Of a stretch of 57,123 nucleotides of DNA, positions 5,708 to 47,540 are shown one piece after another. Position 1 is the first letter of the stretch, and each line of letters opens with the position of its first letter. The notes under the pieces are model-generated. The model had not been told where the DNA came from. It did not search any database and saw nothing but the letters and a program-made list of their open reading frames with translations. A program made the translations under genes and the position numbers. This stretch comes from Candidatus Zipacnadia bacterium (GTDB lineage: Bacteria; Armatimonadota; Zipacnadia; Zipacnadales; Zipacnadaceae), in assembly GCA_029819875.1 (NCBI GenBank), contig JALGVG010000004.1:1-57123 (forward strand), given 5' to 3'.

Positions 5708-6508
5708 TTGGATAACATTTCGCAGGCTATAGACCAGCTTGTTGCAATGTCCCGGCACCTGGGAGAGCCGCAACGGGATTACGTCATCCTCGGCGAGGGC
5801 AATACCTCCGCCCGGGCCGATGAAGAAACTTTCTGGGTCAAGGCCAGTGGTGCGCAGCTATGCAACATTGACGCCCAGGGGTTCGTTCGAGTGCGCTTTG
5901 GTCCGGTGCTCGCCTTACTGGATGCCGGCGATGTAACCGAGGAGGATGTCAAGCACACGCTGGCTGAAGCCACGGTGGGCGACACCAAGCTGCGACCCTC
6001 GACAGAGGCCTTCATGCACGCACTGTTGCTGCAACTGCAGGACGTACACTTCGTCGGCCACACCCATCCGACGGCGGTCAACGCCATCCTCTGTGCGCGA
6101 CATCCCAAGCCTGTGTTGCGCGGCAGGTTGTTTCCCGACGAGATAGTGTGTTGCGGGGTTGCGCCCGTCTGGGTTCCATTTGTTCCCCCGGGCGTGGCCC
6201 TCGCCCGGCGCATTCGCCAAAATGTCGAGGCATTCATTGCCCGCTACGGCGAGCGGCCGCGCTCCATTTTGCTGCAGAATCACGGACTCATTGCGCTGGG
6301 AGCAACCCCGGCCGAGGTACAGAACACCACCGCAATGTGGGTCAAGACGGCCCGTATCCTGGCCGGCACGTTTCAATTTGGCGGCCCACATTACTTGACT
6401 GCAACCCAGGTGCAGGAAATACATACCCGGGCTGACGAAAAATACCGCAAAAGCCTATTAGACGGCACACGAGAAAGAGGAGAGCCTGATGCAGGCACAA
6501 CACCGTAA
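5708..6508 (+). CDS. class II aldolase/adducin family protein
   Basis: TTG start with AGAGGTGAG upstream. EGNTSARADEETFWVKASGAQL and VGHTHP motifs are typical of class II aldolases (N-domain of rhamnulose-1-P aldolase/dehydrogenase type proteins). Confidence 0.85.
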   Translation: MDNISQAIDQLVAMSRHLGEPQRDYVILGEGNTSARADEETFWVKASGAQLCNIDAQGFVRVRFGPVLALLDAGDVTEEDVKHTLAEATVGDTKLRPSTEAFMHALLLQLQDVHFVGHTHPTAVNAILCARHPKPVLRGRLFPDEIVCCGVAPVWVPFVPPGVALARRIRQNVEAFIARYGERPRSILLQNHGLIALGATPAEVQNTTAMWVKTARILAGTFQFGGPHYLTATQVQEIHTRADEKYRKSLLDGTRERGEPDAGTTP

Positions 6509-8219: not shown

Positions 8220-8393
8220 CCGGCCCGGGCTGGTATAGCCCGGCAGTGCATGTGAGCCGGCGGCATCTGCCGGCCCCAAGAACAAACAGGTTACCGCCTG
8301 CTGCGCAGGACCGGCCACGGTGCGCGGGGAACAAAGCCCGGTGCCTAGTGCAAGGTTTGCTGCGTTCCTTTTCCTACCCGGAGGCGTGCTACA

Positions 8394-9215
8394 GTGGATA
8401 CCAATGTGTACTCCCCGAAGGTCAGCCATGAACATCTGCCAGGTAAGGTTGCCCTGGTAACCGGGGCGGCGCAGGGCTTGGGCGAGGCCATTGCCGCGGC
8501 CTTGGCGAACGAGGGCTGTGACGTGGTGGTTGCCGACATCAACGGCACAGGCGCCCGGCAGGTGGCCGCCACCCTTGCCGACAAGTACGGCCATCGCGCG
8601 GTCGGTGTAGAGATGGATGTTACCGAGGAAGCCAGCGTTGCGGAGGGCTTCGACCTCTGCCGGCGCGAATTCGGCAGGCTCGATATCTGCGTCAGCAATG
8701 CCGGCATCCTCATATCTGGCCCTATCCAGGAATTTGACGTCGAAACATGGCGCAAGGTCATCAATGTCAACCTCGTCGGCTACATGATAGTGGCCAAACA
8801 TGCGGCGCGGGTGATGATCCCTCAAAAGTCCGGGGTTATCATCCAGATCAACTCCAAGTCCGGCAAGCGCGGCAGCTCCAAGAACAGCGCCTACGCCGCC
8901 AGCAAATTCGGCGGGATCGGGCTGACCCAGAGCCTGGCACTGGAGCTGGCGGAGCACAACATCCGCGTCAACGCCATCTGCCCGGGAAACCTGCTGGATT
9001 CACCGCTGTGGGTCAATAGCCTCTATGCTCAGTATGCCAGGCGCTGGGGCATCAGCGAGGAAGAGGTGCGCCGCAGGTATGTCGACCAGGTGCCCATGAA
9101 ACGAGGCTGCACGTATCAGGATGTCATCGGCGTATTGCTGTTTCTGTGCTCCGATAATGCTGCTTACATGACCGGCCAGGCTATCAATGTCACCGGCGGG
9201 CAGGTAATGGATTGA
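8394..9215 (+). CDS. SDR oxidoreductase, sorbitol-6-phosphate 2-dehydrogenase (SrlD/GutD)-like
   Basis: GTG start with GGAGG upstream. Motifs seen: GKVALVTGAAQGLG; NSKSGKRGSSKNSAYAASKFGGIGLTQSLALELAEHNIRVN; KRGCTYQDV...GQAINVTGGQVM. These closely recall SrlD. Confidence 0.85.
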   Translation: MDTNVYSPKVSHEHLPGKVALVTGAAQGLGEAIAAALANEGCDVVVADINGTGARQVAATLADKYGHRAVGVEMDVTEEASVAEGFDLCRREFGRLDICVSNAGILISGPIQEFDVETWRKVINVNLVGYMIVAKHAARVMIPQKSGVIIQINSKSGKRGSSKNSAYAASKFGGIGLTQSLALELAEHNIRVNAICPGNLLDSPLWVNSLYAQYARRWGISEEEVRRRYVDQVPMKRGCTYQDVIGVLLFLCSDNAAYMTGQAINVTGGQVMD

Positions 9216-9234
9216 AAACACTTGGGGGCTGAAG

Positions 9235-10362
9235 CTACACGATCCGCGACAGCAGACTGCGGTGCACGGCGATGGCGTCTTGGGGACAGGCCTCCATGCA
9301 GCAAAAACACTCGATGCACTTGCGGTAGTCGATTACCGCGTAGTCGTCTACAGTAATGGCATCCGCCGGGCAAACCTGGGCACATCCCCCGCACGCTATA
9401 CAACGCCGGCGGCGTACCCGGGGCCGGACATAGATGAACCTGCTGCCTGCTCGTCCCAGCCACGGCGGCAGGTTGCGCATCAGCCCGGGCGGCCTGGCGA
9501 ACCTGATGCGCAAGGCGCCCAGGTCAGCACCCGTCACTGCTATATGCTGCCGGTCTGCCGTACCCCAGCCACTTTCCGCAGCGAGCGGCGTGCTCAGCAC
9601 CTCGCCCGGCCGGAAGCCGACCAGCATCTCCGTCACGGCATCCAGTGCCACGCCATCCGCCGAGGCCGCCACCACGCCCCAGCGGCGTACCCGCCCTTGA
9701 CTGGGTCCGGAGCCGTCCATTACCCAAACGGCATCCAGGATGTTCAGGTGCGGCACGAACGCCCCGTAAATATCGGCCACCGAGCCACTGAGGGCCTTGA
9801 ACGTCCCCAGAGCGTGGACCTCGATACGTTGACGCGGTGCCAACCCGCCGAACATGTTTTTCACGGCACCCGTGTACACTGTCTGAACGTGGGTCTTGCA
9901 CTTGGGCAGGTTTATTACTACATCGACTTCACGCAGCAAGTTCGCAGTGTGGATGTATTCCCAGCAGTGAAAGCGGGGCAGGCGCACAGCAGAATAGCCG
10001 GCCGCGCCCAGCAATTGGAATTCGACATCCAGGCCCTTGCAGGCCTCCACGTAACCGGCCTCAGCAAAGACATGACCGGCCCGGCCGGTAAGGTAGTAGG
10101 TCGGCTGATCTGCCACGATAATCTTGCCGCCGGCCTCCGCTACGATCTCGGCGACTGCGCGCAACAGGGCCGGGTGGGTGCACACCGCCTTTTCCGGCGG
10201 CCGAGGAGTGACAATGTTGGGTTTAAGCAGTACAATCTGGCCGCCCCGCAGCAGCTTGGAGCTGTCCGGGACCGCCTCCACCGCCTTGCGCACCGCCCGG
10301 CGCAGCTCATCCAAGTTGTACGTGGAACAGCTCTGCAACGCGACGGTAGCTGGCTGTAGCAT
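9235..10362 (-). CDS. DUF362 domain protein with C-terminal 2x[4Fe-4S] ferredoxin motif
   Basis: CIACGGCAQVCP...CIECFCCMEACP cysteine clusters after a DUF362-like body. The start is uncertain (ATG 10362, 10380 or 10434). Confidence 0.8.
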   Translation of the reverse strand: MLQPATVALQSCSTYNLDELRRAVRKAVEAVPDSSKLLRGGQIVLLKPNIVTPRPPEKAVCTHPALLRAVAEIVAEAGGKIIVADQPTYYLTGRAGHVFAEAGYVEACKGLDVEFQLLGAAGYSAVRLPRFHCWEYIHTANLLREVDVVINLPKCKTHVQTVYTGAVKNMFGGLAPRQRIEVHALGTFKALSGSVADIYGAFVPHLNILDAVWVMDGSGPSQGRVRRWGVVAASADGVALDAVTEMLVGFRPGEVLSTPLAAESGWGTADRQHIAVTGADLGALRIRFARPPGLMRNLPPWLGRAGSRFIYVRPRVRRRRCIACGGCAQVCPADAITVDDYAVIDYRKCIECFCCMEACPQDAIAVHRSLLSRIV

Positions 10363-10484
10363 GGGCCAAATATACCACATTTTGGTGGCCGTGTCCCGAT
10401 TTGGAAGGTGTGTTGGTGCCAAATGAAGAATCACTACACAGTGTCCGGCGGATTCGGCACATTGGTATTGGGTGGCGGGTAGTA

Positions 10485-11159
10485 GTGCAGGATCATCGCG
10501 AATTGGTAATTCTGATACTGCAAAAGCGCCTTGAAAAGGCCAAAACGCGGCTTTCCAGTGTGCTGGATGACAACACGCGTGAGGCCCTTACCTTGGCGCT
10601 GCTGCGTCGCACCCTGAAAGTTTGCCGCCAGGTGAAGGAAGCTACGCACATTATGCTGTGCGCTCCGGGCAGCTTGCAGTACCTGGCCGACCAATTCGGA
10701 GCCGAGCTTGCTACCGGCGGCGATGAGGGCATGCGCCGCGACATATGCGCGTGCGCTCATCAGGTTTGGAGCCAGTACCAGGCTGCCTTGCTGATCGTCT
10801 CCTCAGACCTGCCGTTGATGCAAGTGGAGGACATTGAACAGATCACAGCGGCCTGGCGCGGGGGCGCCGAGGTCGTTATCGCTCCCGACCGCAGGCAACG
10901 GGGCACCAATGTAATGCTGGTCAATAACCCCGAACACTTCGAATATGCCTTCGGGGAAGTACTAGGTCCGGGCAGCTTCCATACGCACAAGCGCCGGGCG
11001 CAAGAGCTGGGATTAACTGTGACAATCATCTATAATCCACACCTTGCATTGGACTTGGACCTGCCGGCTGACCTGGCTGCTTTTTTCAGGGAAGCACCTG
11101 ACGACCCACTGGCCCAGTTCTGCAGGTCGCGCGCCGATGACGTGTTCAGATTTGAATGA
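10485..11159 (+). CDS. CofC/FbiD-like (2-phospho-L-lactate guanylyltransferase family) nucleotidyltransferase
   Basis: Family blocks seen: KRLEKAKTRLSSVLDD..R..L; SSDLPL; RRQRGTNVM; AFG..SF..H; ALDLDLPADL. The start is uncertain (ORF opens at 10401; GTG 10485 follows GGTGGCGGG). Confidence 0.6.
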   Translation: MQDHRELVILILQKRLEKAKTRLSSVLDDNTREALTLALLRRTLKVCRQVKEATHIMLCAPGSLQYLADQFGAELATGGDEGMRRDICACAHQVWSQYQAALLIVSSDLPLMQVEDIEQITAAWRGGAEVVIAPDRRQRGTNVMLVNNPEHFEYAFGEVLGPGSFHTHKRRAQELGLTVTIIYNPHLALDLDLPADLAAFFREAPDDPLAQFCRSRADDVFRFE

Positions 11160-11223
11160 AAAAAGAGCTGTCTTGTGGTAATATACCTTTCACGAAACTA
11201 CCCATAGTATGGAGGCGAACATC

Positions 11224-12495
11224 ATGGCTCAACAGTTGGCGATTGATGGTGGCGAACCAATTTGTACTGAACCATTCCCACCATGGCCCTACTTCACGCC
11301 CGAGATGATCGAGGCGGCTACCGAGCCGCTGAAATCGGGCAAGTGCAACTACTGGACCGGTCCGTTAGGAATGGAATTCGAGCAGAAGTTCGCCGAATGG
11401 TGCGGAGCCAAGTACGGCATCAGCACCAGCAGCGGCACGTCCGCCCTGCACACGGCCCTCGGCGGCCTGGGAATCGGGCCCGGCGACGAGGTAATCGTCC
11501 CCTCGTACACCTTCATTGCCTCCTCGATGGCAATCGTACAGGCGGGCGCAATCCCCGTGTTCGCCGACGTGGAACCGCAATCCCATACGCTCAGCGCCGA
11601 GGACGTGGAGGCAAAGATATCGGACCAGACCCGTGCCATAATAGTAGTTCACCTGTATGGCGAAGTCGCCGACATGGATGCCATCAACGCCGTAGCCCAA
11701 AAGCATGGTCTGCTGGTGATAGAGGATGCCGCCCAGGCGCACGGCGCCACCTACAAGGGCAATAAGGTTGGCACCATCGGCGATATCGGCTGCTTCAGCT
11801 TCTGTCAGAGCAAGACCATAACCACCGGTGGCGAGGGAGGCTGCGTGATAACCGATGACGAGGACGTGGCCTGGGAATGCCGGGCGTTCAGGGATCACGG
11901 CTATGATGTCCAACTGCGCCTCAAGCTCCTGGAACTGGAGGCCAGGCTCCCGTACATCCACAAGTCCGTCGGCTTCAATTTCCGGATGACTGAAATGCAG
12001 TCGGCAATCGGCCTGGAAGCGCTCAAGATCATCGACACCTGGAATTTGCCTAATCGCCGCCGAAACGGCGAGTACCTCATACAGCGTCTCAAGGACATCC
12101 CGCAAATCATCAGGCTGCCCATCCACAACGAGGAAAGACAGAACGGATTCTGGTTGTTCCCTATCATCGTGGACATTGATGCACTAACCTGCGACATCAA
12201 GCAACTAGGTGCAGCCCTAACCGCCGAAGGCATTCCCAACGGCCCGGTGATGTGGCCCCAGTCATACAAGGAGGCATGCTACGCGGAACACAACGGCTTT
12301 GGGCCGCTCAAATACCCGTTCAAGGCGCCATATGCGCGCCCGGAGGCTGTGGACTACAAGAATTGCTACTGTCCCAATGCCGCGTGGGTCGAGGAGCGTT
12401 GTTTCTGGGTACCCACGCATCCGACTTATGAGCTGGAACACATGAAGCTGATTGCAGACGGGATTGAGAAGGTCATCACTGCATACGCCAAGTAA
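11224..12495 (+). CDS. DegT/DnrJ/EryC1/StrS family PLP-dependent aminotransferase
   Basis: GGAGG lies 8 nt before ATG 11224. GTSALHTALGGLGIGPGDEVIVPSYTFIAS and FSFCQSKTITTGEGG (PLP-Lys region) are present. Confidence 0.85.
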   Translation: MAQQLAIDGGEPICTEPFPPWPYFTPEMIEAATEPLKSGKCNYWTGPLGMEFEQKFAEWCGAKYGISTSSGTSALHTALGGLGIGPGDEVIVPSYTFIASSMAIVQAGAIPVFADVEPQSHTLSAEDVEAKISDQTRAIIVVHLYGEVADMDAINAVAQKHGLLVIEDAAQAHGATYKGNKVGTIGDIGCFSFCQSKTITTGGEGGCVITDDEDVAWECRAFRDHGYDVQLRLKLLELEARLPYIHKSVGFNFRMTEMQSAIGLEALKIIDTWNLPNRRRNGEYLIQRLKDIPQIIRLPIHNEERQNGFWLFPIIVDIDALTCDIKQLGAALTAEGIPNGPVMWPQSYKEACYAEHNGFGPLKYPFKAPYARPEAVDYKNCYCPNAAWVEERCFWVPTHPTYELEHMKLIADGIEKVITAYAK

Positions 12496-12633
12496 CAGGC
12501 TGCGGAGAACGCAACATCGGGCCGGCTGTCCGCTTGCGTGGACCATCCTTGCGGTAAGCAGTACAGCTCAGCCTCCGGCAGGGACGGCCGGCGGTGAGAT
12601 GGCAAGAGGCATTATCGACAGTGGGGAGATGCC

Positions 12634-15600
12634 GTGATGAAGCGTGATTGGACAATGCCAGTACGCCTGGCAGGCATAATAGCAGGCCTCATGCTGATAG
12701 TAACCGGCGCGGCAGAGGCCAAAACGGACTTTGCCAAGCTGGCAACCCAGGTGAGCGAGGCGCGCCTGAAGCAGGATATGCGCTTCTTTGTCTCTCTGGG
12801 CTCGCGGGTATCAGGCTACCCGGGCAATGCGCGGGCTGCCGATTACATCATCAACGAGTTCAAGCGCCTGGGCATTGAAACCCTCGTCCAGGAATTCGAC
12901 CTCCCCACACCGCTGGACCAAGGCGCTCAACTGCGCATCGGCGACAAGACCTACCAGTTGTCGTGCTTGTGGCCCAACCTGGTCCGCACCTCCCAGGTGC
13001 CCAGCCAAGGCATCAAGGGCAATGTACTGTACGTCGGTCGTGGCAATCTCGCTGACTACAACGGCAAGCAGGTAGCCGGCTCAATTGTGCTGATAGACTT
13101 CAATACAGGCCAAAACTGGCTCAACGCGCCCTTGCTGGGAGCGGCGGCTGTCATCTTCATCGAGCCGCAAACCACCACCCGCGGCGAGGCGGAGATGAAG
13201 TTCCTGCGCGTGCCGGTCAACGTTCCTCGTTTCTATATCCGCGCCGATGACGCAGACGACATCCTCGCCGCCGTCGTCCAGGGCGATGTGACCGGCGTGC
13301 TGACGGCCAACCAAACCTGGGTAAACAGTGTCAATCGAAACATTATTGGAATTATTCCCGGCACCGATCCGCAGCTTAGCAAGGAAGCCATGATTATCGA
13401 GGCATACTATGACTCGATCTCGGTGGTGCCGCGCCTCTCGCCCGGTGCCGAGAATGCCGTCGGCATCTGCGCCTTGCTGGAGATGGCACGCCTGCTTGCA
13501 GAGAATCCACCCAAGCGTACCGTGATACTGCTGGCAACCAGCGGGCACTTCGAGGCGCTGGCCGGCGCGCGCGAGTTTGTCGCGATGTGGGGCCGGGAGC
13601 CGCGCAAGGCGCGCGACCGCTACAAGCAGCTTGATAAGCTCAACAGGCAGCTTGCCGATCTGCAGCGCCAAAAGCAGCAACTGGCCAAGGCCATAGCCGA
13701 AGCCAAGTCACCGAGGGCCGGCGGCGGGCTGGGACAGGTAGCCCGCACCAAGGGCATGGTCGCCATCGGGCAGCTCGAAATCACCTTGCCCAACGCGCTG
13801 CAGCGGGACAAGCGCCTGGAGCGTGATATCGCCCGCAAACAAAATGAAATAAGAATCTGGAAGCGACTGGACCAGTTCGACAAGATAAAGATGTTCATCG
13901 GCCTGGACCTAAGCACCAAGAGTCGCACGCTTGGCGTGTTCAATGTCGGCTCCTACTATCAACAGGTCCAATTCCTCCGCTTCTACTCTCCCGTCGGCAA
14001 GCAATTCGCGGTCCGTGCCAAACAAGCCGCCCTCGCACTGGGTATCACCCCCTCCGAGGCGTTTGTAGACGGCATCAATCCAATCAAGGGCCGCGACTGG
14101 ACCACGTTCTTCCCCGGCAGGGTAGCATTCGACCACGAGATGGCCATCCGCGGGGGGCGGCCCGGCATCCTGTTTGCAACGGTCAACGACGGCCGTTCCG
14201 TGGTTGATACGCCGCTGGATACCTACGAGCATCTCAACCTGCCCAACATGTATGCGCAGATACGCCTGCTTTACGGCTTGCTGGTCGACTTCTTCAACGA
14301 TGAGACATTAAGTCAGCAAGCGCTCAAGCGCGTTGACGCGCTGAAAAAACTGGGCGAACTGGTTGACATCAACGGAACGGTGCTGGAATTTAGGCGGCGC
14401 GAAAGTTTCGTACCCAATACGCCTGTCCCCAACGCCTTGGTGCTCGTGCAGGGCGGCTCGCGGATGATGCTCGGAGTCCACACCACGGTAATGACGATGG
14501 CCAACGAGACGAGCGAATTTACGCTCCGCGGCGAGGGGGCCACCGGACTGCGCCTGCTGGAAGCATATCGTTTCGATCCGCGCAACGGCAATATCGTCTA
14601 CGCACCTGACTTGGGGCCCGACGGCGAGGGCAAGTATCCTCGCGCCGTTCAGGGACGGGCCGGCCTCAAGCGCCCGATCATCGTGTTCCGATGTGCCAGC
14701 ATTGACATATTCGACCTGATAGACGAGCGCTATTTCCAGAGCCTGCAGACGCTGTTTGTCTATGACGCCAAGGACTTCAGTGAGCCGGTCTCGTACGGCT
14801 ACTCGCTGCCACAGCCGCCGGGTGCCACTGAATTCCCCTCCTATGTCGAGCCCTGTGCCGTGGTCTACGCGCCTCCGGATACGCGCGCGCAGATAACCAT
14901 GGGGATGGGGCTGCTGGGCGTGCGCATGGTGCTGATAAATGCCTCGGCCGACAAGCCGACCGGGGCCGGCTTTTTGGCCTCGAGTACTCCGCGTATCACG
15001 CTCACTCCCTTGCAAGTAGCCAAGGACATGTGGCTTATCGACGAAGACCGCATGCGCCGGTTGCAAGAGCGGGGAGTAATCGGCGGTGGCGCACGCAAGG
15101 GCGGCAAGCCAGGGCGCCAGGGACGCCTTGAAGAGCTGCATGCCTTGGCAAAGGCCTCCTTGGATGCCGCCGCAGAGGCTCTTGCCGCTCGCCAATATGA
15201 TAAGGTCATCGCCGCGGCCCGCCATGCGTGGGGTTACGAATCACGCGCTTACCCGGACGTACAAAAAACCGCCCTGGATGTAGTGAAGGGTGTGCTGTTC
15301 TATCTGGCGATGCTGCTTCCGTTTGCCTACTTCGGCGAACGCCTGCTTATCGCCTCGCGCACCATCATCGGCCAGATCGTCGGCACCCTCGTCGTGTTTG
15401 TAATCGTCTTCATCATACTGGCCATGGTACATCCGGCTTTCAAGCTGACTGCTACGCCGCCCATCATCCTGCTTGCCTTTATCATCATGGCGCTGGCGGT
15501 ATTGGTTATCGGCATTGTTACTGCGAAATTCAACGAAGAGCTCAAGGCCATGAAGCAATCCCGCGGTGGGGTGCACGAGGCTGACGTGGGACGCCTGTCG

Positions 15601-17394
15601 GCCACCGCCGCCGCCTTTCACCTGGGAATCGCTAACATGCGTCGTCGCAAGGCGCGGACCGCCTTGACCGCGGCAACGCTGATTATCCTGACGTTCACGG
15701 TGCTGAGCTTTACCGCTGTCAAGTCCCAAATCCGCACCAATCGCATCCAGCTGCCATACCCACCGGCATATCAGGGAATAATGCTGCGCGACCGGGCATG
15801 GCTGCCTTTGGAAGCCCCCACGGCCGACATTATCGCCAATTCGGTGGGGAAAGATGCTGTTGTATCGCCCCGTGCCTGGTACATCAGTGCGGACATCCAA
15901 AAAGAGCTGATGATTGATGTCTCGCTGACGGAAACACCAACCACGGTCTACACCATCAACGCGATACTGGGTCTGTCGGCCCAGGAGGCCAAGGTGCTGG
16001 ATATCAAGCAGGCACTGGTGGCAGGCCGCTGGCTGCAGCCGGGCGAGAAAAATGTGGCATTGCTGCCGGTAACGGTAGCCAGTGGGCTGGGCATAACCAG
16101 CGAGGACGTGGGCCGCGTCTGGATAACTGTGTTCGGAACCAATTTCCGGGTTATCGGCTTGCTGTCGGAGGACCGTCTGCGACGCTTGAAGGATCTCGAC
16201 GGCGAGGCACTGATGCCCGTCAACTATGCCTTGCTCAGGCCCGAGATCATCAAGGAGCTCCAGCGTCAGGCTCAACAACGCTCGCAGCTGGGAACGACCA
16301 GCGCCCAGTCGCTGCTGCAGGAATACAAGCATTACGGGCCTGAAAAGATCATCGTGCTTCCCTACAACACGATCCTGGAAATGGGCGGCACCTTGCGATC
16401 GGTGGCCGTTCGCTACCCCAGCTCCGAGGCGGTGGCGCCCGTCATCAAGGACATGATGAAGCGCTTTGCCCTCAGCCTCTACACGGGCATGGGGCCGATC
16501 ACCTACTTGTTCAGCTCGGTGGGTACAACAGCCCTGACAGGGATGGAGACGCTGGTCATCCCCATCCTCATCGCCGCCCTGATAGTGTTGAACACGATGC
16601 TGGGCGCCGTGTACGAGCGGACGCGCGAAATCGGTATCTACAGCTCGCTGGGGCTGGCCCCCTCTCACATCGGCGCCCTGTTCCTGGCCGAAGCGGCGGT
16701 GTTCGCCAACCTCGGAGCCATTATCGGATACCTTATCGGTCAAATCCTGGCACGAATCCTGTTCGCCACCGGCAACACGGGGGGCATCGAACTGAACTAT
16801 TCGTCAACCGCAGCCGTGGCCGTTACAATCGTCGTGATGGTTACCGTGCTGCTGTCTACGCTCTATCCGTCACGCAAGGCTTCCGAGATAGCCTCTCCCG
16901 GTATCGAGCGCAAGTGGAGCCTGCCCGAACCTGAGGGCGACTACATGCATATCCGCTTGCCGTTCACCGTCACGGGACGCGATGCATACGGTGTCGTGGC
17001 CTTCCTCAAGGAATACTTCGACCAATACGTCGGTTACGCAGGGGGAGAATTCCTCGCCGAGAACGTCCACGTGCAGCCAATACGCGCCGAAAACGGCACC
17101 GGGCTCACCGTAAAGCTGAGAATGTGGCTGGCGCCGTACGACCTGGGGGTGAGCCAAGACTTTGAGCTGGTGTGCTCACCCACCGGCGATGAGGATATCT
17201 TCGAGATATTCATCCACCTGCATCGCCTGGCCGGGGACATAACCTCGTGGAAAAAGACCAACACGTTGTTCATGGCGTCCGTGCGCAAACAGTTCCTCAT
17301 CTGGCGCACTGTGCCTGTCAACGAAAAAGCAGCCTACGCCGAGCGGGCCGAAACGCTTCTGGAGGATACTGCCGAGGCGCTCCAGCAGGCCTGA
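12634..17394 (+). CDS. 1,586-aa fusion protein: signal peptide + PA/M28 peptidase-like ectodomain + multi-TM region + FtsX/MacB-type permease module + C-terminal cytoplasmic domain
   Basis: Single ORF; GGGGAG precedes GTG-ATG at 12634/12637. M28-like blocks are NIIGIIPG...AYYDS...GAENAVGICALLEMARLL. FtsX blocks are RRRKARTALTAATLIILTF and VYERTREIGIYSSLGLAPSHIGALFLAEAAVFANLGAIIGYLIGQ. Confidence 0.85.
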   Translation: MMKRDWTMPVRLAGIIAGLMLIVTGAAEAKTDFAKLATQVSEARLKQDMRFFVSLGSRVSGYPGNARAADYIINEFKRLGIETLVQEFDLPTPLDQGAQLRIGDKTYQLSCLWPNLVRTSQVPSQGIKGNVLYVGRGNLADYNGKQVAGSIVLIDFNTGQNWLNAPLLGAAAVIFIEPQTTTRGEAEMKFLRVPVNVPRFYIRADDADDILAAVVQGDVTGVLTANQTWVNSVNRNIIGIIPGTDPQLSKEAMIIEAYYDSISVVPRLSPGAENAVGICALLEMARLLAENPPKRTVILLATSGHFEALAGAREFVAMWGREPRKARDRYKQLDKLNRQLADLQRQKQQLAKAIAEAKSPRAGGGLGQVARTKGMVAIGQLEITLPNALQRDKRLERDIARKQNEIRIWKRLDQFDKIKMFIGLDLSTKSRTLGVFNVGSYYQQVQFLRFYSPVGKQFAVRAKQAALALGITPSEAFVDGINPIKGRDWTTFFPGRVAFDHEMAIRGGRPGILFATVNDGRSVVDTPLDTYEHLNLPNMYAQIRLLYGLLVDFFNDETLSQQALKRVDALKKLGELVDINGTVLEFRRRESFVPNTPVPNALVLVQGGSRMMLGVHTTVMTMANETSEFTLRGEGATGLRLLEAYRFDPRNGNIVYAPDLGPDGEGKYPRAVQGRAGLKRPIIVFRCASIDIFDLIDERYFQSLQTLFVYDAKDFSEPVSYGYSLPQPPGATEFPSYVEPCAVVYAPPDTRAQITMGMGLLGVRMVLINASADKPTGAGFLASSTPRITLTPLQVAKDMWLIDEDRMRRLQERGVIGGGARKGGKPGRQGRLEELHALAKASLDAAAEALAARQYDKVIAAARHAWGYESRAYPDVQKTALDVVKGVLFYLAMLLPFAYFGERLLIASRTIIGQIVGTLVVFVIVFIILAMVHPAFKLTATPPIILLAFIIMALAVLVIGIVTAKFNEELKAMKQSRGGVHEADVGRLSATAAAFHLGIANMRRRKARTALTAATLIILTFTVLSFTAVKSQIRTNRIQLPYPPAYQGIMLRDRAWLPLEAPTADIIANSVGKDAVVSPRAWYISADIQKELMIDVSLTETPTTVYTINAILGLSAQEAKVLDIKQALVAGRWLQPGEKNVALLPVTVASGLGITSEDVGRVWITVFGTNFRVIGLLSEDRLRRLKDLDGEALMPVNYALLRPEIIKELQRQAQQRSQLGTTSAQSLLQEYKHYGPEKIIVLPYNTILEMGGTLRSVAVRYPSSEAVAPVIKDMMKRFALSLYTGMGPITYLFSSVGTTALTGMETLVIPILIAALIVLNTMLGAVYERTREIGIYSSLGLAPSHIGALFLAEAAVFANLGAIIGYLIGQILARILFATGNTGGIELNYSSTAAVAVTIVVMVTVLLSTLYPSRKASEIASPGIERKWSLPEPEGDYMHIRLPFTVTGRDAYGVVAFLKEYFDQYVGYAGGEFLAENVHVQPIRAENGTGLTVKLRMWLAPYDLGVSQDFELVCSPTGDEDIFEIFIHLHRLAGDITSWKKTNTLFMASVRKQFLIWRTVPVNEKAAYAERAETLLEDTAEALQQA

Positions 17395-17562: not shown

Positions 17563-19434
17563 TCACCAGGGGATAAATTGCACCACTGCCACACCGGGGC
17601 CGGTGAAGGTCACTTCAGCCTCGTTGGCCGCGGGACGATCGGCGACTTGAATGTCCGGGGATGAAGGGTCGAGTTTGCGCACCCTCAGCCTTGCGACATT
17701 AATCTCGCCGCGCGCCTGGACATGCACCTTGCGTGGCCCCTCACCCCCATAAGCGATGACAGCGGTGTTGGATGTCTTGGTGCGGATGCCTGCTGCCAGG
17801 ACCTCGGGCAAGGGATTGGAGTAGTGGCATAATTCAGCGCCGGCCGGGGCCCAGTGGCGAAGCAGCCAGGCTGCATGGTACAACGCTGTTTTGTGGCCTT
17901 GTGGGTCCAGCAAGCCGGTGTGCTCGCCGCACAGGGAGTGGCAAATCACCTTGTTATGGGTCGGTGCCGCCACCAGCGTCACTGTCGCCAACCAAGCAGC
18001 AGCGAAGTAATCCCGTGGCGAATCTCCCCGTGGATAGACCGCCGCCGTGCCCATCCACAAGTCGGTGATGAAGAGGTTGCGTAGTTCAGGCCGCAGTCGC
18101 GCAACCAGGGCCCGCACTTCCGGAAAGCTGACCTGATGTGAAAGGTCGAAGGCCTCGCCCGTGCGGGCACTGGCCAGCGCCTCCTCGTCCGACAATTCGG
18201 CGGTGTGGCCGGAGAAAAAATGATAGCTGAGAAAATCGAGCCATCTGGCCGCTTTCACGAATTCGCTAATATGTCTTCGGTCTGCCGAGGCAAAACCCAT
18301 GCCTCCGACATAGGCGTACGGGCCGGGATCGGCCTGCTTGAGATCCGTGGCCAGCGTGTTGTAAGCCTCCAGCGCCGCCTCGATGTTTGCGTACTGGCCG
18401 CTCTCCAGCGGTTCAGGGAACAGTTCGTAGTAATGGCTCGTGGGCGCCCCCGTGCGGCTTTCAGCCACTTCAATGCACGTCTTGTAGAATATGTCCCATA
18501 GTTCCGTCTCTTGGCCGGCATCGTCTATTGCAGCCGCCGGCGGGCGACAAGACAGCATCCAGCGTGCGTTATGGCGCTCTATCCAGTCAAGATGCCCGGT
18601 CAGCCTATCAACGTCATAGCATTTCTGTTCGCTATTGAAGTAGTTATTCAGGCGCACGAGCACCACGCATGGCCCGATGTTCGCCAGGTACTCACCGAGA
18701 CGCTCCTCGGCAGGCCCCCCTTCGTCAATGAGCGCGGCGGCGGCAGGATCCAACTGTACTCCTATCTGCCCCAGTAACCTTGCTTGCGTCATGGAAAAAT
18801 CAATGACTACCGAGGTCTCCGTAGGGGGTGAGGGCGCCAGCCCGGCCGTCTGGGTGGGCTCGGCTACGATCTGGTCCACGTAGAAACGAGACGCCGGCCA
18901 CGAACCGTAACGGGCAAGCTCCAGGTAGCGGACCCAGGGCAATTCCGTGCTGGTGAGGGATTTACCGCTGTCATCCACAAAGCCGAAGAACCGCAAGGAA
19001 AACCGCTGCCACTGCGTGGACTTGACGGTCAGCGTCTGCTTGTACTCTGTTGCCGTGGATTTATCCGGCGGAAACACCTTCAATACCACGGTCAGTTTCT
19101 GCGGTGTGCCGTCCCCTTTCATCCACAGGCTGAGCTGATTGCAATTGTTCTGCACCCAGGCGGCGCCCTTCACCGCACACCGCACAAGTGCCCACGTCTC
19201 GTTCCCTTCCAGGAATTCCACCAGCGCTGACTGCCTTCCGCCCTCCTGGGGAGCGGGGCGGGCAACGGGGTAGATGTTGCACAGCGAGGCCGGCTCGCCC
19301 TGTGCCGCCAGGCCGTCAAGCGTCTCCCACTCCCCGACGCCGGTCTCGAAGTCCTCAATCAGCACCTGGTCCGCCAGAACCGACGAGGCCAACACAGCGC
19401 AGAGAAAAATGTTCAACACATAGCGCCTGTGCAT
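17563..19434 (-). CDS. secreted protein with N-terminal CBM/CIA30-like module and putative clan GH-A-like TIM-barrel body
   Basis: Signal peptide MHRRYVLNIFLCAVLASSVLA; DFETGVGEWETLDG opening is typical of CBM-like modules. YYELFPEP recalls the NEP acid/base motif. The function call is weak. Confidence 0.55.
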   Translation of the reverse strand: MHRRYVLNIFLCAVLASSVLADQVLIEDFETGVGEWETLDGLAAQGEPASLCNIYPVARPAPQEGGRQSALVEFLEGNETWALVRCAVKGAAWVQNNCNQLSLWMKGDGTPQKLTVVLKVFPPDKSTATEYKQTLTVKSTQWQRFSLRFFGFVDDSGKSLTSTELPWVRYLELARYGSWPASRFYVDQIVAEPTQTAGLAPSPPTETSVVIDFSMTQARLLGQIGVQLDPAAAALIDEGGPAEERLGEYLANIGPCVVLVRLNNYFNSEQKCYDVDRLTGHLDWIERHNARWMLSCRPPAAAIDDAGQETELWDIFYKTCIEVAESRTGAPTSHYYELFPEPLESGQYANIEAALEAYNTLATDLKQADPGPYAYVGGMGFASADRRHISEFVKAARWLDFLSYHFFSGHTAELSDEEALASARTGEAFDLSHQVSFPEVRALVARLRPELRNLFITDLWMGTAAVYPRGDSPRDYFAAAWLATVTLVAAPTHNKVICHSLCGEHTGLLDPQGHKTALYHAAWLLRHWAPAGAELCHYSNPLPEVLAAGIRTKTSNTAVIAYGGEGPRKVHVQARGEINVARLRVRKLDPSSPDIQVADRPAANEAEVTFTGPGVAVVQFIPW

Positions 19435-19494: not shown

Positions 19495-20259
19495 TCAGCC
19501 GAGTTGCCTGCAAATCATTGCGGCAAAACAGCCAGCCCCGAACCCGTTGTCAATATTGACCACCACCACGCCTCCGGCACAGGAGTTGAGCATTGTCAGC
19601 AAGGGCGCTATGCCGCCTAGATTGGCTCCATAGCCTACACTGGTCGGCACTCCTATCACCGGCTTGTCCACCAGTCCCCCGACCACGCTGGCCAACGCCC
19701 CTTCCATGCCCGCCACCACCACGATTGCGCTTGCACTGTCCAGAAGTTGCCGGTGTTGCAACAAGCGGTGGATGCCGGCCACCCCCACATCGAACAAGCG
19801 CTGCACGCGGCAACCAGCCGCCTCCGCCGTCACGGCGGCTTCTTCGGCCACGGGAATATCGGCGGTTCCGGCTGATATGACCAACGCCATGCTCTGCGTC
19901 CGGCTCGCCGGCCCACCGATCTGAATGATACGGGCCTGCTCATGATACACGGCCTCGGGTATTGCTGCATGAATGTGGTCGAATATCTCCGGCCGGGCGC
20001 GGGTAGCCAGAACAACATCGGCGTTCTTGCGTAAGGACCGGACTATCCCCTCGATCTGTTCAACCGTCTTGTTCTCACACAGCACAACCTCGGGGAAACC
20101 CTGGCGTAGCGCCCGGTGATGGTCCACCTTGGCATAGCCGAGGTCCTCGAAGGGGAGATCGCGCAACCGGGCCACGGCCTGTTCGATGCTCAGCCGCCCT
20201 GCTGCCACTTCCTCCAGCATCCGTTTGAGACGTTGTTCATCCATCTGTCCACTTCTCAC
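19495..20259 (-). CDS. larB: nickel-pincer cofactor biosynthesis protein LarB (PurE-like NaAD carboxylase/hydrolase)
   Basis: Motifs seen: LPFEDLGYAKVDHHRALRQGFPEVV; ISAGTADIPVAEEAA; DVGVAGIHRLL; VVVAGMEGALASVVGGLV; PTSVGYGA; NIDNGFGAG. An alternative start is ATG 20244. Confidence 0.85.
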   Translation of the reverse strand: MRSGQMDEQRLKRMLEEVAAGRLSIEQAVARLRDLPFEDLGYAKVDHHRALRQGFPEVVLCENKTVEQIEGIVRSLRKNADVVLATRARPEIFDHIHAAIPEAVYHEQARIIQIGGPASRTQSMALVISAGTADIPVAEEAAVTAEAAGCRVQRLFDVGVAGIHRLLQHRQLLDSASAIVVVAGMEGALASVVGGLVDKPVIGVPTSVGYGANLGGIAPLLTMLNSCAGGVVVVNIDNGFGAGCFAAMICRQLG

Positions 20260-28241: not shown

Positions 28242-29243
28242 CTATATCGCAGTGGCAAAGGCTTGCAGGATTTGGGTCAGCACTATCAAGGCCTCGGCAG
28301 TGGCATCAACGACGTCGGACTCCTCGTTTTCACCCATTGACAGCATCAGCCAACTGCCGTTGCTCAGTTGCATTTCCAACAGGTTGTTGCCCACTTCCTC
28401 GGTGGTCTGCGCATAGCTGGTGCTGCCGGTGGCCGTGTAAAGCACCGCGGCCGCCCACCCTACAAATGCGCTCCTTTCGCTGCTGTACCGGTCATCAGAG
28501 CAGCCCGCTATGAATGTCATGTAGGCTTGTGCGGCATCCAGGTATTTTCGCTCGCCGGTTGCCTCGTACATCAGGCCCAAGAAACCGGCAGCCATGGCCG
28601 GTACATGGTACCATTGCTCGGGCTTGGTAGCATCCACCAGGTACATCTTCAGCATTGCATCGGGAATGGTAGTGATGAGTGTTTGCCCATTGCGCACTGC
28701 GTAGAAGAGGTGGGTATCGGCCCCGGCAGGTTGTTCATCCAGCAGCCAGATGAGGAACTCGGCGGCGCTTGCGGCTGCCTCCAGGTTACCGGTGTGAAGC
28801 ATGGCCAGGCCCACTGTGGCCGTGGTCAACGCATCCTGTTCGTCGTCAAAGCCGGCGCTGGGCCCAATGCTGAAAAAGCCACCGGTCTCGGGATGTTGCA
28901 AGGTGGCCAAGAATGAAGCTGCGGGTATGGAGATTCCGAATTGGCCCAGCCGGTGCGCACCGCATACCACCCATGAGTTGGCAAGCAGATAATGGCTCTG
29001 GTGAAGGGGAGTGCGCGGGAAATGACCGCCGATATCACCCTCCTCGTCCAGGCAGTTGGCCTGTATCCAACTGCACAATCTTGCCGCCCGTTCGACCTGC
29101 CCCATCACCGCCAGCGCCATCAATACCTTGTGAAAGGTGGCTACTCCCAGTCGCACGGGCCTAAACGAGCCGTCCTCGTTTTGCTGGCTCAGTAACCATT
29201 TGGTTCCTGCGATTGTCGCCTGCCGGTACCTCTTAATGTCCAT
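28242..29243 (-). CDS. prenyltransferase/squalene-oxidase-repeat (alpha/alpha toroid) protein
   Basis: QW-like motifs at both ends (WLLSQQNEDGSFR, LLEMQLSNGSWLM). The body is helical-repeat rich and has no signal peptide. Confidence 0.6.
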   Translation of the reverse strand: MDIKRYRQATIAGTKWLLSQQNEDGSFRPVRLGVATFHKVLMALAVMGQVERAARLCSWIQANCLDEEGDIGGHFPRTPLHQSHYLLANSWVVCGAHRLGQFGISIPAASFLATLQHPETGGFFSIGPSAGFDDEQDALTTATVGLAMLHTGNLEAAASAAEFLIWLLDEQPAGADTHLFYAVRNGQTLITTIPDAMLKMYLVDATKPEQWYHVPAMAAGFLGLMYEATGERKYLDAAQAYMTFIAGCSDDRYSSERSAFVGWAAAVLYTATGSTSYAQTTEEVGNNLLEMQLSNGSWLMLSMGENEESDVVDATAEALIVLTQILQAFATAI

Positions 29244-45696: not shown

Positions 45697-46776
45697 CTAA
45701 CGTGAGCGCTCTACGATAAGCCCTATTCCTACCAAGTATAGAATGATATTGGGCAACCAGGCGGCAATAATGGCCGGCATCGCACCATTTTCGCCCATCA
45801 CGCCCAACAAGTAAAAAACGACGTAGTAAAGCAAGATTATGGCCAGTGAAACTCCCAGCCCGATCCCCGTGCTCGTCCGTTGCGGGCGCATCCCCAGCGG
45901 CATGGCGAGCAAGGCAAAGCCCAGGGCACACCAGGGAATGGCGGCGTGGCTGTGATATTGCTGACGCAGCTTGCTCAACATGTGGTCACTGGGGCCTACC
46001 TGTGACTGCAACCTGATCTGCTGGCGTAACTCGGCCATGCTCATGTCGTTTATGCGGCGGTCGTAGCGGGCTGCCTGCTCCGGACTTTTGCCCACATTAT
46101 AGGTGAACTGGCTGATATGAGTGGTCACCCGGCCATCGTTACTGAAGTGGGTGACATTGTGCAGAATCAACTGCTCTCCCTTCCACTGTGCAGAATCGGC
46201 CTTGAACCACTCCCACAGGCTACCGGCTCGCAATTCGATTATCAGCACCGTGTGTAGGGTCAAGCTGCGTGTATCGAACACCGCCGCGTAAACCAGCTTA
46301 TCCGGCGTACCTTCCGGTGGAATCTGGAGGGTATAGTGCTGCTTGACGGCCAGGTCACGCCCCCCCGCTTCCGCCAACAAGCGGCGGGCCGCCTTGTTCG
46401 CCGGGGGAGCGATCGTTTCGTTCAGCACCAACGTCGCCACTGACAGAGCCACTCCCAAGGCCACGACGGGAACCGTAAGCCGCGGAAAGCCGATGCCGCC
46501 GGCGTGCATGGCCACGATTTCTCCGTCACCGCTGAGCCTTCCCATCGCCGTGAGCACGCCGAACAGCGTGCCCATGGGAATGGTCAAGGCTATGGTTTGG
46601 GGTAGTTGGTACACAAATGCCTGCCCCACGATGTGAGCGGGAATCCCCTGCTCGAATATGAGCCGAAAGGCGTTCCCCAGTATATCGACGCTGACGAGGA
46701 TAATGACGAATGCACCAATCCCAAACAGAAGTGGTCCTGATACTTCGGCTAGAATGTAGCGGTCTATTTTACGCAT
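45697..46776 (-). CDS. LptF/LptG family LPS export permease
   Basis: MRKIDRYILAEVSGPLLFGIGAFVIIL opening, 6 TM helices and a central periplasmic beta-jellyroll region. An alternative GTG start at 46824 overlaps the lptB stop (GTGA). Confidence 0.85.
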   Translation of the reverse strand: MRKIDRYILAEVSGPLLFGIGAFVIILVSVDILGNAFRLIFEQGIPAHIVGQAFVYQLPQTIALTIPMGTLFGVLTAMGRLSGDGEIVAMHAGGIGFPRLTVPVVALGVALSVATLVLNETIAPPANKAARRLLAEAGGRDLAVKQHYTLQIPPEGTPDKLVYAAVFDTRSLTLHTVLIIELRAGSLWEWFKADSAQWKGEQLILHNVTHFSNDGRVTTHISQFTYNVGKSPEQAARYDRRINDMSMAELRQQIRLQSQVGPSDHMLSKLRQQYHSHAAIPWCALGFALLAMPLGMRPQRTSTGIGLGVSLAIILLYYVVFYLLGVMGENGAMPAIIAAWLPNIILYLVGIGLIVERSR

Positions 46777-46820
46777 AAGCAACTGGCTTGCTGGCAACCG
46801 GCAGCTTGCGGCGCCGGCAC

Positions 46821-47540
46821 TCACATCTGGAAGCGCTCGCCCAGATAATACTGCCGCGCTATGGGATCGTTGGGCAGTTCATCGGAGCGGCCATGGGTGC
46901 GAATGACGCCTTCGGATATGATATAGGCCCGGTCGGTGATGCTCAAGGTGTCGCGCACATTGTGATCGGTGACCAGTATCCCTATATCCTCGGAGCGCAG
47001 GTCAGTGACGATATCCTTGATATCATCTATGGCAATGGGGTCAACCCCCGTGAAAGGCTCATCGAGCAAGATGAAGGAGGGGGATGTGCACAGCGCTCTG
47101 GCGATCTCCACCCGCCGTCTCTCGCCGCCGGACAGCACCTGCCCCTTGACATCGGCCAGGTGCGCTACTCGCAGCTTCTCCAGCAACTCCATGGCCCGCT
47201 GCTTGCGTTGTGCCGGTGTCAGCGGCTGCATCTCCAGTATCAGCATCAAGTTGTCAAACACGCTCAGCTTGCGGAAAACCGACGGTTCCTGTGCCAGGTA
47301 GCCCAGCCCCTTGCGACATCGCCGGTACATGGGCATCTTCGCCAGGTCCTCGCCGTCAAGCAGTACACGACCTGCTTCGGCCCGCACCAGTCCCAGCACC
47401 ATGTAAAAGGTGGTCGTCTTGCCCGCCCCGTTGGGTCCCAGCAAGCCTACTATCTCCCCGCGCCTCACCTCCAGGCTTACCTCGTTCACTACCCGGCGTC
47501 CCCCGTAGGATTTCACAAGGCCCTCTGCTACTAGTGGCAT
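46821..47540 (-). CDS. lptB: LPS export ABC transporter ATP-binding protein LptB
   Basis: GPNGAGKTT, LSGGERRRVEIARAL, ILLDEP, TDHNVRDTL, YLGERF. Confidence 0.92.
   Translation of the reverse strand: MPLVAEGLVKSYGGRRVVNEVSLEVRRGEIVGLLGPNGAGKTTTFYMVLGLVRAEAGRVLLDGEDLAKMPMYRRCRKGLGYLAQEPSVFRKLSVFDNLMLILEMQPLTPAQRKQRAMELLEKLRVAHLADVKGQVLSGGERRRVEIARALCTSPSFILLDEPFTGVDPIAIDDIKDIVTDLRSEDIGILVTDHNVRDTLSITDRAYIISEGVIRTHGRSDELPNDPIARQYYLGERFQM

Follow-up and report, generated by a model that had tools for sequence, protein, structure and literature searches.

We analyzed a 57,123-nucleotide stretch of DNA from Candidatus Zipacnadia bacterium (contig JALGVG010000004.1 of assembly GCA_029819875.1; hereafter, the window) that encodes a giant protein of 1,586 residues, in which a periplasmic ectodomain with the fold of M28 peptidases is joined to an FtsX/MacB-type permease. 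On balance, we lean toward the view that this protein is the permease of an uncharacterized Type VII (MacB/LolCE/FtsX-fold) ATP-binding cassette (ABC) system with a covalently attached periplasmic effector, and that its ATPase is supplied in trans. A previous interpretation made without database searches (the sequence-only reading) had implied a machine that lacks an ATPase. This does not hold at the family level: in one of the two clades of the family, the giant gene can be accompanied by genes for a short FtsX protein and for a LolD/MacB/FtsE-type ATPase. The sequence-only reading is thus partly supported: the architecture is genuine and uncharacterized, but the missing ATPase is probably a local feature of one paralog and not a property of the machine. 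The mechanism class as such is familiar; the new aspects appear to be the covalent effector, the extra transmembrane (TM) helices, the cytoplasmic tail, the minimal FtsX partner, and the two-paralog arrangement.

The giant M28-FtsX protein and its family

The giant protein displays the features of a Type VII permease, namely an FtsX domain, the fold composed of a periplasmic core domain (PCD) and four TM helices, and a coupling helix. Pfam detected FtsX (residues 1308-1417; 54.8 bits versus a cut-off of 25.5), Peptidase_M28 (residues 236-337; 47.1 bits versus 21.3), and MacB_PCD (residues 1013-1210; 27.7 bits versus 27.0), and the PA domain (residues 138-208; 20.7 bits) fell slightly under its cut-off of 23.9. 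These are the four domains that the sequence-only reading had anticipated, and its claims of an uninterrupted open reading frame (ORF), of the order of the parts, and of a single polypeptide were likewise borne out by Pfam, hydropathy, AlphaFold2, and Foldseek. Indeed, Pfam, AlphaFold2, and Foldseek are concordant on the layout of the protein (Table 1).

For the C-terminal half, an AlphaFold2 model of residues 861-1586 was built from a 20-sequence alignment and reached a predicted local distance difference test (pLDDT) score of 72.7 overall and of 85-95 across the PCD. Foldseek matched this model to MacB, LolCDE, Spr0694-0695, HrtBA, and YtrEF at E values of 7e-12 to 1e-7, and more weakly to FtsEX (6e-3); the PCD matched the isolated MacB periplasmic domains 5c59 and 5lj8 at 1e-4. 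The cytoplasmic coupling helix (YERTREIGIYSSLGLAP, of the ER..EIG type) contains six residues (E1328, R1329, E1332, I1333, G1340, and P1343) that are invariant in 65 sequences from both clades. Given the known structures of MacB, LolCDE, and FtsEX, this helix is predicted to be the docking site of the ATPase. No Walker A motif was found anywhere in the 1,586-residue sequence, nor any Walker motif in the cytoplasmic tail. The tail is modeled as a beta-alpha-beta4-alpha2 fold with a local pLDDT of about 80-89, and profile searches returned no match to it in Pfam or among PDB sequences; weak Foldseek matches of the C-terminal half to Bet v 1/START-like folds (E 0.02-0.09, TM-scores 0.3-0.4) are not assignable with certainty to the tail.

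Hydropathy placed FtsX TM1 at residues 1011-1029, followed by a periplasmic domain of ~280 residues, and TM2 to TM4 at 1308-1326, about 1346-1378, and 1392-1410. Three further TM segments precede this module, at about 880-898, 911-929, and 944-962, in the hydropathy of the protein as well as in the family average. The N-terminal hydrophobic segment is present in 65 of the 72 family members, the stalk (residues 541-879) is kept throughout the family, and N1001, R1003-R1005, and R1008 are invariant in the basic linker. In the predicted arrangement, which is consistent with a MacB-type topology, the N-terminal ectodomain and the PCD are extracytoplasmic, and the linker, coupling loop, and tail face the cytoplasm. 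Two invariant motifs flank the extra helices: E902-R903-L904 lies in the cytoplasmic loop after the first of them, and H933-P-A-F936 (HPAF) in the short loop that connects the second and third helices on the periplasmic side. We also considered that the signal anchor, the ectodomain, and the three extra helices might represent a degenerate first FtsX repeat; this was rejected, as hhalign of residues 866-978 with FtsX TM2-4 and with the short FtsX family described below yielded probabilities of 0.2-0.4%.

The ectodomain was modeled separately (residues 30-880, 16-sequence alignment), with a pLDDT of 81 and a predicted TM-score (pTM) of 0.84. Its best Foldseek matches in the PDB were PA-domain M28 aminopeptidases, namely that of Aneurinibacillus AM-1 (2ek8), B. 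subtilis BSAP/YwaD (6hc6), and P. aeruginosa PaAP (8acg), at E values of 5e-23 to 1e-16, followed by TfR1/GCPII; the sequence match to 2ek8 has an E value of 2.5e-10. The PA insert and the M28 fold are shared with these enzymes. The giant protein differs from them in a hairpin of at least 87 residues within the M28 core, in the beta/helical region of ~340 residues that follows, in being tethered to an ABC permease, and in its ligand set (Y/E/H/F/D/x). The Pfam match to M28 covers only profile positions 1-96 of 193, that is, the N-terminal half, and is interrupted at the hairpin (~326-412), an insertion that varies in length and is longer in distant homologs.

We then aligned the giant protein to 2ek8, 6hc6, and 2anp and counted the residues of the metal site in 75 family members (AAP numbering). 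The zinc ligand D179 is kept as D425 (75/75). The ligand H97 is replaced by Y258 (Y in 69, H in 3, and F in 3 members), the bridging ligand D117 by E273 (71/75), the general base E151 by H305 (75/75), and the ligand E152 by F306 (F in 52 and H in 16), whereas the position of the ligand H256, residue 501, is variable (S in 28, H in 20, A in 14, and N in 9). Thus, the co-catalytic ligands H-D-E-D-H and the general-base Glu of active M28 enzymes are not retained, and an alternative set is strongly conserved instead (Y258, Y259, D260, E273, H305, D425, and E502, the last in 75/75 members). The description of the ectodomain as peptidase-like in the sequence-only reading is therefore correct for the fold (Pfam, Foldseek) but not for the M28 catalytic residues. 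Judged from these residues, the module lacks a canonical di-zinc site. It could be a pseudo-enzyme with a binding or regulatory role or, alternatively, an enzyme whose site has been re-engineered. Both have counterparts: EnvC, the transferrin receptor, and nicastrin are pseudo-enzymes used for binding or regulation, and glutaminyl cyclase is an M28-fold enzyme with a single zinc. The transferrin receptor, a non-catalytic receptor of the M28 fold, has lost its zinc ligands, and in this respect the giant protein resembles it.

The fusion recurs widely. In a collection of 5.8 billion proteins (with homologs from NCBI, JGI, ENA, and Logan assemblies), we found 364 matches, more than 120 of which are co-linear with the giant protein (1,480-1,724 residues, 38-81% identity, 97-100% query coverage); co-linear full-length homologs reach down to 37% identity. 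A pattern scan of metagenome contigs uncovered more than 496 related loci. When the ectodomain alone was used as the HMMER query, 799 clusters at 50% identity were recovered (E < 1e-30), nearly all with lengths of 1,450-1,800 residues, so that the ectodomain is essentially always paired with the permease. In addition, invariant residues span all domains and junctions, including the tail. We were also able to address the possibility that the ORF arose from an assembly join, or from a missed frameshift or stop codon between two genes. With hundreds of co-linear homologs and conserved residues through each junction, such an artefact is vanishingly improbable; as judged by these comparisons, an assembly join is excluded and the fusion is a single genuine polypeptide.

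Most family members belong to Armatimonadota, with others from metagenome-assembled genomes (MAGs) of WS1 and Latescibacterota; Chthonomonadetes also appears among the source names. Among genome records, the nearest homolog (81% identity) comes from a Candidatus Zipacnadia MAG. They are named "M28 family peptidase," "FtsX-like permease family protein," or "hypothetical protein" in databases. None of the homologs found is characterized, the curated NCBIfam models for FtsX, MacB, LolC/E, and ADOP give only partial matches far below threshold, and our literature search found no publication on an FtsX-M28 fusion, a Type VII ABC system with an M28 domain, or DUF6785 (a neighbor discussed below). 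The architecture thus does not correspond to a characterized family, in agreement with the sequence-only reading.

Two clades and the supply of an ATPase

To compare gene neighborhoods, ORFs from 94 loci were clustered, and six-frame ORFs were then searched with hidden Markov models (HMMs) to avoid antisense artefacts, such as cluster c13, which is the antisense of the ABC gene and results from calling the longest ORF. We distinguished clade A, which is of the window type (at least 54% identity to the window protein, 17 loci), from clade C (<44% identity, 53 loci).

In clade C, a gene pair encoding a short FtsX protein and an ABC ATPase flanks the giant gene in 18-19 of the 53 loci, and in 8 of the 12 loci with full flanks, either directly upstream or 3.5-5 kb downstream. 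The short FtsX protein (230-260 residues) has four TM helices and no periplasmic domain. It aligns with the TM2-4 block of the giant protein (hhalign 98.4%) and shares its coupling motif, as ERFREIG. All five top-scoring short FtsX matches whose contigs were inspected (including that at locus L047) adjoin both an ABC gene and a giant paralog. The partner ATPase scores best on the LolD, MacB nucleotide-binding domain (NBD), DarD, YbbA, FtsE, and DevA models, with LolD as the top NCBIfam match; ATPases of the LolD/MacB/FtsE type form the clade that serves FtsX-fold permeases. The presence of two different FtsX-fold proteins and one ATPase gene per operon suggests a heterodimer similar to that of LolC and LolE.

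No such pair lies near the giant gene in clade A within the available flanks. Two MAG assemblies contain both paralog loci. GCA_900174595.1 (Armatimonadetes) harbors a clade-A locus with a DUF6785 gene followed by the giant gene (L017, FWPV01000166) and also a clade-C operon (L088, FWPV01000029) with the short FtsX gene, the ABC gene, a giant gene of 1,676 residues whose product is 42% identical to the window protein, and c1, a membrane protein gene described below. Similarly, GCA_052745275.1, a Zipacnadales MAG from the order of the window's closest relative, contains a clade-A locus (L089, JBRALA010000070), a short FtsX-ABC pair located at the end of a contig (L086; JBRALA010000058 corresponds to L086/L087), and a sister contig (L087) that runs from the short FtsX-ABC pair into the N terminus of a clade-C giant gene. 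A fitting ATPase and a minimal FtsX are thus encoded at another locus in lineages that carry the window-type gene. Since the coupling helix is invariant in both clades and the tail is equally conserved in the ATPase-bearing clade C, an ATPase acting in trans is the most economical reading, and ATPase independence appears unlikely.

The giant genes have a second type of neighbor. In clade C, c1, a polytopic membrane protein without a Pfam domain, is encoded directly after the giant gene in 42 loci. In clade A, a polytopic membrane protein with DUF6785 and DUF6784 precedes the giant gene in 13 of the 17 loci, sometimes overlapping with it; this adjacency is lost in the window and in its closest relative, L005. 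The neighborhood comparison that the sequence-only reading had recommended thus revealed a conserved local partner of the window-type clade, albeit one that is absent from the window itself. Profile searches of PDB sequences found no significant match for c1 or DUF6785. The two are probably remote homologs (hhalign 70-84%, E 7e-6), which would make a DUF6785-like membrane protein the most constant partner of both clades. At locus L089, the DUF6785/DUF6784 gene (6121-8112) overlaps the start of the giant gene (8093-12874) by 20 nt, which suggests translational coupling. A soluble protein of ~335 residues, c6, is often encoded after c1 (19 loci of clade C) and had no match in Pfam, in NCBIfam, or among PDB sequences. 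The c6 proteins (L085:16868-17869, L063:17207-18199, and 12 other loci) are cytoplasmic and contain several invariant Trp residues and conserved Cys/His motifs.

We postulate that a LolD/MacB-type ATPase whose gene lies elsewhere in the genome may drive the window protein in trans. Two NBDs would join the assembly, in which the window protein would form a heterodimer with the short FtsX protein (as in LolC/LolE) or a homodimer. ATP binding and hydrolysis would shift the PCD, and the stalk or the hairpin could relay this motion to the tethered M28-like module. On the outer side of the inner membrane, this module may bind, gate, activate, or process a molecule that is periplasmic or has been extracted from the membrane, probably in cooperation with the DUF6785-type membrane protein. 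There is precedent for a Type VII ABC system that acts on, or supplies substrates to, a hydrolase in the periplasm, namely FtsEX-EnvC and YbbAP-TesA (PMC12646458).

Several observations weigh against this proposal. In the available flanks of the 17 clade-A loci, there is no ATPase, short FtsX, or c1 gene nearby, and the 57-kb window contains no short FtsX, DUF6785, or c1 homolog, nor any ABC ATPase besides LptB. The evidence for co-occurrence comes from two MAG assemblies of organisms other than that of the window, and genomes can become mixed in MAG binning. In addition, the model of the C-terminal half is of moderate confidence (pLDDT 72.7, pTM 0.43), the cytoplasmic tail is without a known Type VII counterpart and could alter how, or whether, an NBD docks, and the conserved substituted residues at the "active site" are also compatible with a catalytic role.

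Type VII ABC systems (MacB, LolCDE, FtsEX, BceAB, and YbbAP) are classed by the partner they drive, and, to our knowledge, the characterized partners are all separate proteins. A partner fixed in cis would offer a natural stoichiometric model for how ATPase-driven PCD movement is passed to an effector. The family comprises ~800 clusters at 50% identity, is conserved at full length, and occurs mainly in poorly studied phyla (Armatimonadota, WS1, and Latescibacterota). Its partner genes encode DUF6785/DUF6784, a second polytopic membrane protein, a cytoplasmic Cys-containing protein, and a minimal FtsX, and identification of the substrate would assign a function to several DUFs and could reveal a lineage-specific envelope process. 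More generally, ATPase independence should not be concluded from the lack of an ATPase gene in the vicinity of an FtsX-type permease. A bolder version, which we consider rather unlikely, is that a shared engine of minimal FtsX and LolD-type ATPase pairs with either giant paralog, that the E273/H305/D425 site is a working catalytic or ligand-binding center, and that the DUF6785-type protein supplies or receives the substrate. If so, the family would provide the superfamily's first covalent "extractor-effector" as well as the first single ABC engine to serve two permease paralogs at separate loci.

Known Type VII systems and competing explanations

With LolCDE, the giant family shares structural similarity (Foldseek E values of 1e-9 to 1e-10 for LolC/LolE) and a partner ATPase whose best NCBIfam match is LolD. 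However, the LolC/E models score only 11-26 bits against cut-offs of about 360-540, the second, short FtsX is devoid of a periplasmic domain, and no LolA/LolB context was seen around the giant genes. MacB (MacAB-TolC) provides the top structural matches (5gko, 5lil, and 5nik), in addition to the PCD and Pfam matches given above. Unlike MacB, the giant protein has no fused N-terminal NBD, adaptor and TolC genes are absent from the inspected neighborhoods, and the equivalog model NF007826 scores 25.6 bits against 966, covering TM2-4 only. The duplicated ADOP/YbbP permeases differ as well (TIGR03434, 24 bits against 622; hhalign of the extra three-TM block with FtsX TM2-4, 0.2%).

FtsEX and its partners EnvC, PcsB, RipC, and CwlO resemble the giant family in the FtsX-fold 4-TM permease, the ER..EIG coupling helix, and an ATPase of the same LolD/MacB/FtsE clade. 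The effector of the giant protein is fused in cis via three extra TM helices, whereas the FtsEX effectors are bound non-covalently, and it has a PA/M28 fold in place of the LytM, CHAP, or NlpC folds of those effectors. In addition, the giant protein has a full MacB-type PCD and an additional cytoplasmic tail. The sequence-only reading had stressed this contrast. Since the M28 module has lost zinc ligands and the general base, the parallel with the catalytically dead EnvC is closer than was assumed: EnvC, too, is a hydrolase-fold partner through which periplasmic work is done, is catalytically degenerate, and carries a long helical hairpin (PMC12646458). One could ask whether the giant protein is a divergent ortholog of the cell-division FtsX that controls peptidoglycan hydrolysis through a fused regulator. 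The FtsX domain and fold are present, and a degenerate hydrolase-like ectodomain with a long hairpin is reminiscent of EnvC, PcsB, and RipC. Yet such orthology is highly improbable given the NCBIfam FtsX models (17 bits against cut-offs of 225-255; NF038347, 17.1 against 225; other FtsX models, no match) and Foldseek, which ranks MacB, LolCDE, and HrtBA far above FtsEX (E 7e-12 versus 6e-3). The ~280-residue periplasmic domain is a full MacB-type PCD, unlike the small extracytoplasmic domain of FtsX, and the partner ATPase scores higher on LolD/MacB than on FtsE. There are also two paralogs per genome, with no division-gene context and no adjacent ftsE.

A different alternative is that the M28-like domain is still an enzyme, with a single-metal or non-canonical site (E273, H305, D425, and perhaps Y258 or E502). 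In this case, the MacB-type module would extract peptides, lipoproteins, or other molecules from the inner membrane, or present them there, for trimming by the M28-like domain. We regard this as doubtful, even though much of the conservation would fit it: the replaced positions are near-invariant, and many further residues around the M28 core are invariant, which would be unusual for a purely structural relic. Single-zinc M28-fold enzymes exist, as exemplified by glutaminyl cyclase, and pairs of M16 peptidase genes precede the giant gene at L026, L027, and L030. What argues against catalysis is that neither non-bridging ligand of one zinc site is consistently retained (E152 has become F; H256 varies, S/H/A/N), that a Tyr stands in for H97, and that the general-base Glu has become a His; we know of no M28 peptidase that works with such a residue set.

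The precedent for such an enzyme would be YbbAP-TesA, of which the giant protein would be a fused analog. YbbAP-TesA is an E. coli Type VII ABC transporter-lipid hydrolase complex in which the transporter presents substrates to the hydrolase and thus feeds it (PMC12646458). Both comprise a Type VII permease with more than four TM helices and a periplasmic hydrolase-fold protein, and the partner ATPase of the giant family scores 200-210 bits on the YbbA model. TesA, however, is a separate and active GDSL esterase, in contrast to a fused M28 fold with a degenerate zinc site, and YbbP has 10 TM helices derived from two FtsX repeats, whereas the three extra helices of the giant protein are not FtsX-like.

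Finally, the clade-A paralog might be independent of an ATPase, acting as a passive receptor or scaffold or being driven otherwise, with the cytoplasmic tail in place of an NBD. The neighborhoods would agree with this, as an ATPase or short FtsX gene is near none of the 17 clade-A loci versus 8 of the 12 full-flank clade-C loci, and LptB stands alone in the window; moreover, the tail is a conserved cytoplasmic domain without an assigned function. However, the tail is equally conserved in clade-C proteins with an adjacent ATPase and therefore does not substitute for one. The coupling-helix residues are as invariant in clade A as in clade C, and clade-A assemblies also encode a short FtsX-ABC module. 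Since, in addition, we know of no FtsX-fold permease (MacB, LolCDE, FtsEX) that works without an NBD, we find this explanation quite improbable and favor an ATPase supplied in trans.

Window context and minor observations

The giant gene starts with GTG at position 12634, with ATG as the following codon, and one database gene call for the protein (P0001) begins 19 codons further downstream, the sole oddity noted when the possibility of an artefactual fusion was considered. The coordinates of the gene and its parts are given in Table 1.

Table 1. Features of the giant M28-FtsX gene, with positions counted along the window
Feature	Coordinates	Strand	Basis and remarks
Shine-Dalgarno-like GGGGAGA	12621..12627	+	6-7 nt before the GTG/ATG start; predicted from sequence
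Giant M28-FtsX protein, complete 1,586-codon ORF, stop included	12634..17394	+	Uninterrupted; homologs from independent assemblies are full-length at 38-81% identity
Residues 1-29, putative signal peptide or anchor (n-region rich in K/R, hydrophobic core, AEA-K)	12634..12720	+	Hydropathy, hydrophobic segment 8-26
Residues 30-540, ectodomain of the PA/M28 fold, periplasmic, di-zinc site degenerate (Y258, E273, H305, F306, D425, H501)	12721..14253	+	Pfam, PDB alignments, AlphaFold2, Foldseek
Residues 326-412, insertion in the M28 domain that forms a long helical hairpin	13609..13869	+	AlphaFold2 helices 297-329 and 356-383 (model numbering, offset +29)
Residues 541-879, beta-rich region, then helical bundle (stalk) to the membrane	14254..15270	+	AlphaFold2 strands 547-738, helices 762-850 (model positions)
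Residues 880-962, three additional TM helices	15271..15519	+	Hydropathy; invariant columns
Residues 963-1010, basic cytoplasmic linker/elbow helix (NMRRRK)	15520..15663	+	10 K+R in 48 residues; helical in AlphaFold2
Residues 1011-1307, FtsX/MacB TM1 and PCD	15664..16554	+	Pfam MacB_PCD, AlphaFold2 pLDDT 85-95, Foldseek
Residues 1308-1410, FtsX TM2-TM4 block	16555..16863	+	Pfam FtsX; hhalign to short FtsX partner
Residues 1326-1345, cytoplasmic coupling helix VYERTREIGIYSSLGLAPSH between TM2 and TM3, predicted ATPase docking site	16609..16668	+	Invariant residues
Residues 1411-1586, conserved cytoplasmic C-terminal alpha/beta domain, 176 residues (WLAPYDLGVSQ and RKQFLIWRT motifs)	16864..17391	+	Invariant columns, AlphaFold2

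The window represents ordinary chromosomal DNA that encodes GroEL, DnaK, a ClpB-like gene product, and aconitase. As the sequence-only reading had noted, the giant gene lies between a DegT aminotransferase gene upstream (11209..12495) and a convergent ORF for a secreted-type protein downstream. The latter encodes 623 residues (17563..19434, minus strand) with a signal-like hydrophobic N terminus and had no Pfam or NCBIfam match. It was rejected as a partner of the system, as it is unrelated to c1/DUF6785 by HMM and was found otherwise only in the close relative L018. DegT and the upstream sugar-modifying genes were rejected as well; they are kept only in L005, with an extra gene intervening before the giant gene, which points to synteny and not to functional linkage. 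Equally correct was the designation of lptB (46824..47540, minus strand, ~29 kb away; TIGR04406, 346 bits versus a cut-off of 240) as the sole ABC ATPase gene in the 57 kb. It adjoins an LptF/G-like permease gene (45700..47540 for the pair, minus strand), which fits a diderm envelope with lipopolysaccharide in an Armatimonadota-like organism.

Hints about the substrate are weak and come from the neighborhoods of clade C. The M16 (insulinase-type) peptidase gene pairs at L026, L027, and L030 directly precede the giant gene and share its strand. In many loci, one or two pilin- or prepilin-like genes (N_methyl and SBP_bac_10) follow c1 (L003:9657-10253, L024, L041, L043, L047, L049, L069, and L092-L094); such genes are very numerous in these phyla, and their proximity may thus be due to chance.

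In four loci (L009:9339-10418, L016:3500-4534, L080:10672-11688, and L091:10581-11591), the gene immediately after the clade-A giant gene encodes a further protein of ~335 residues, with "QNEDGSF"-type repeats and the look of a prenyltransferase or terpene cyclase; a GFO/IDH/MocA oxidoreductase gene often comes next. The protein with these repeats has no Pfam match on record and is unrelated to c6 (hhalign 0.4%). Its homolog in the window (28242..29243, minus strand) is 11 kb away from the giant gene, on the other strand.

In 11 marine clade-C loci (among L056-L073, e.g., L063:7354-7965), a membrane protein of ~200 residues with an Hpre_diP_synt_I domain (PF07456) is encoded just upstream of the giant gene, and in some of these loci DUF6785-like fragments, possibly pseudogenes, lie between the two. 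Synteny on the upstream side of the clade-C operon is also conserved among L086, L092, L093, and L094, which share a HIT-family gene, a gene for ~445-526 residues without a Pfam match, SBP_bac_1, and signal peptidase I (Peptidase_S26), the last on the opposite strand; the short FtsX-ABC pair comes after these genes.

Within the window, two long ORFs overlap on opposite strands at 9235..10434 (minus) and 9262..10359 (plus). The plus-strand ORF has no Pfam match, and the minus-strand ORF clusters with an ORF of L005 and is therefore probably the real gene of the pair. Downstream of the giant gene, a 254-residue protein with an AIR-carboxylase-like domain (PF00731) is encoded at 19495..20259 (minus strand), and its gene occupies the same relative position in L017 and L018.

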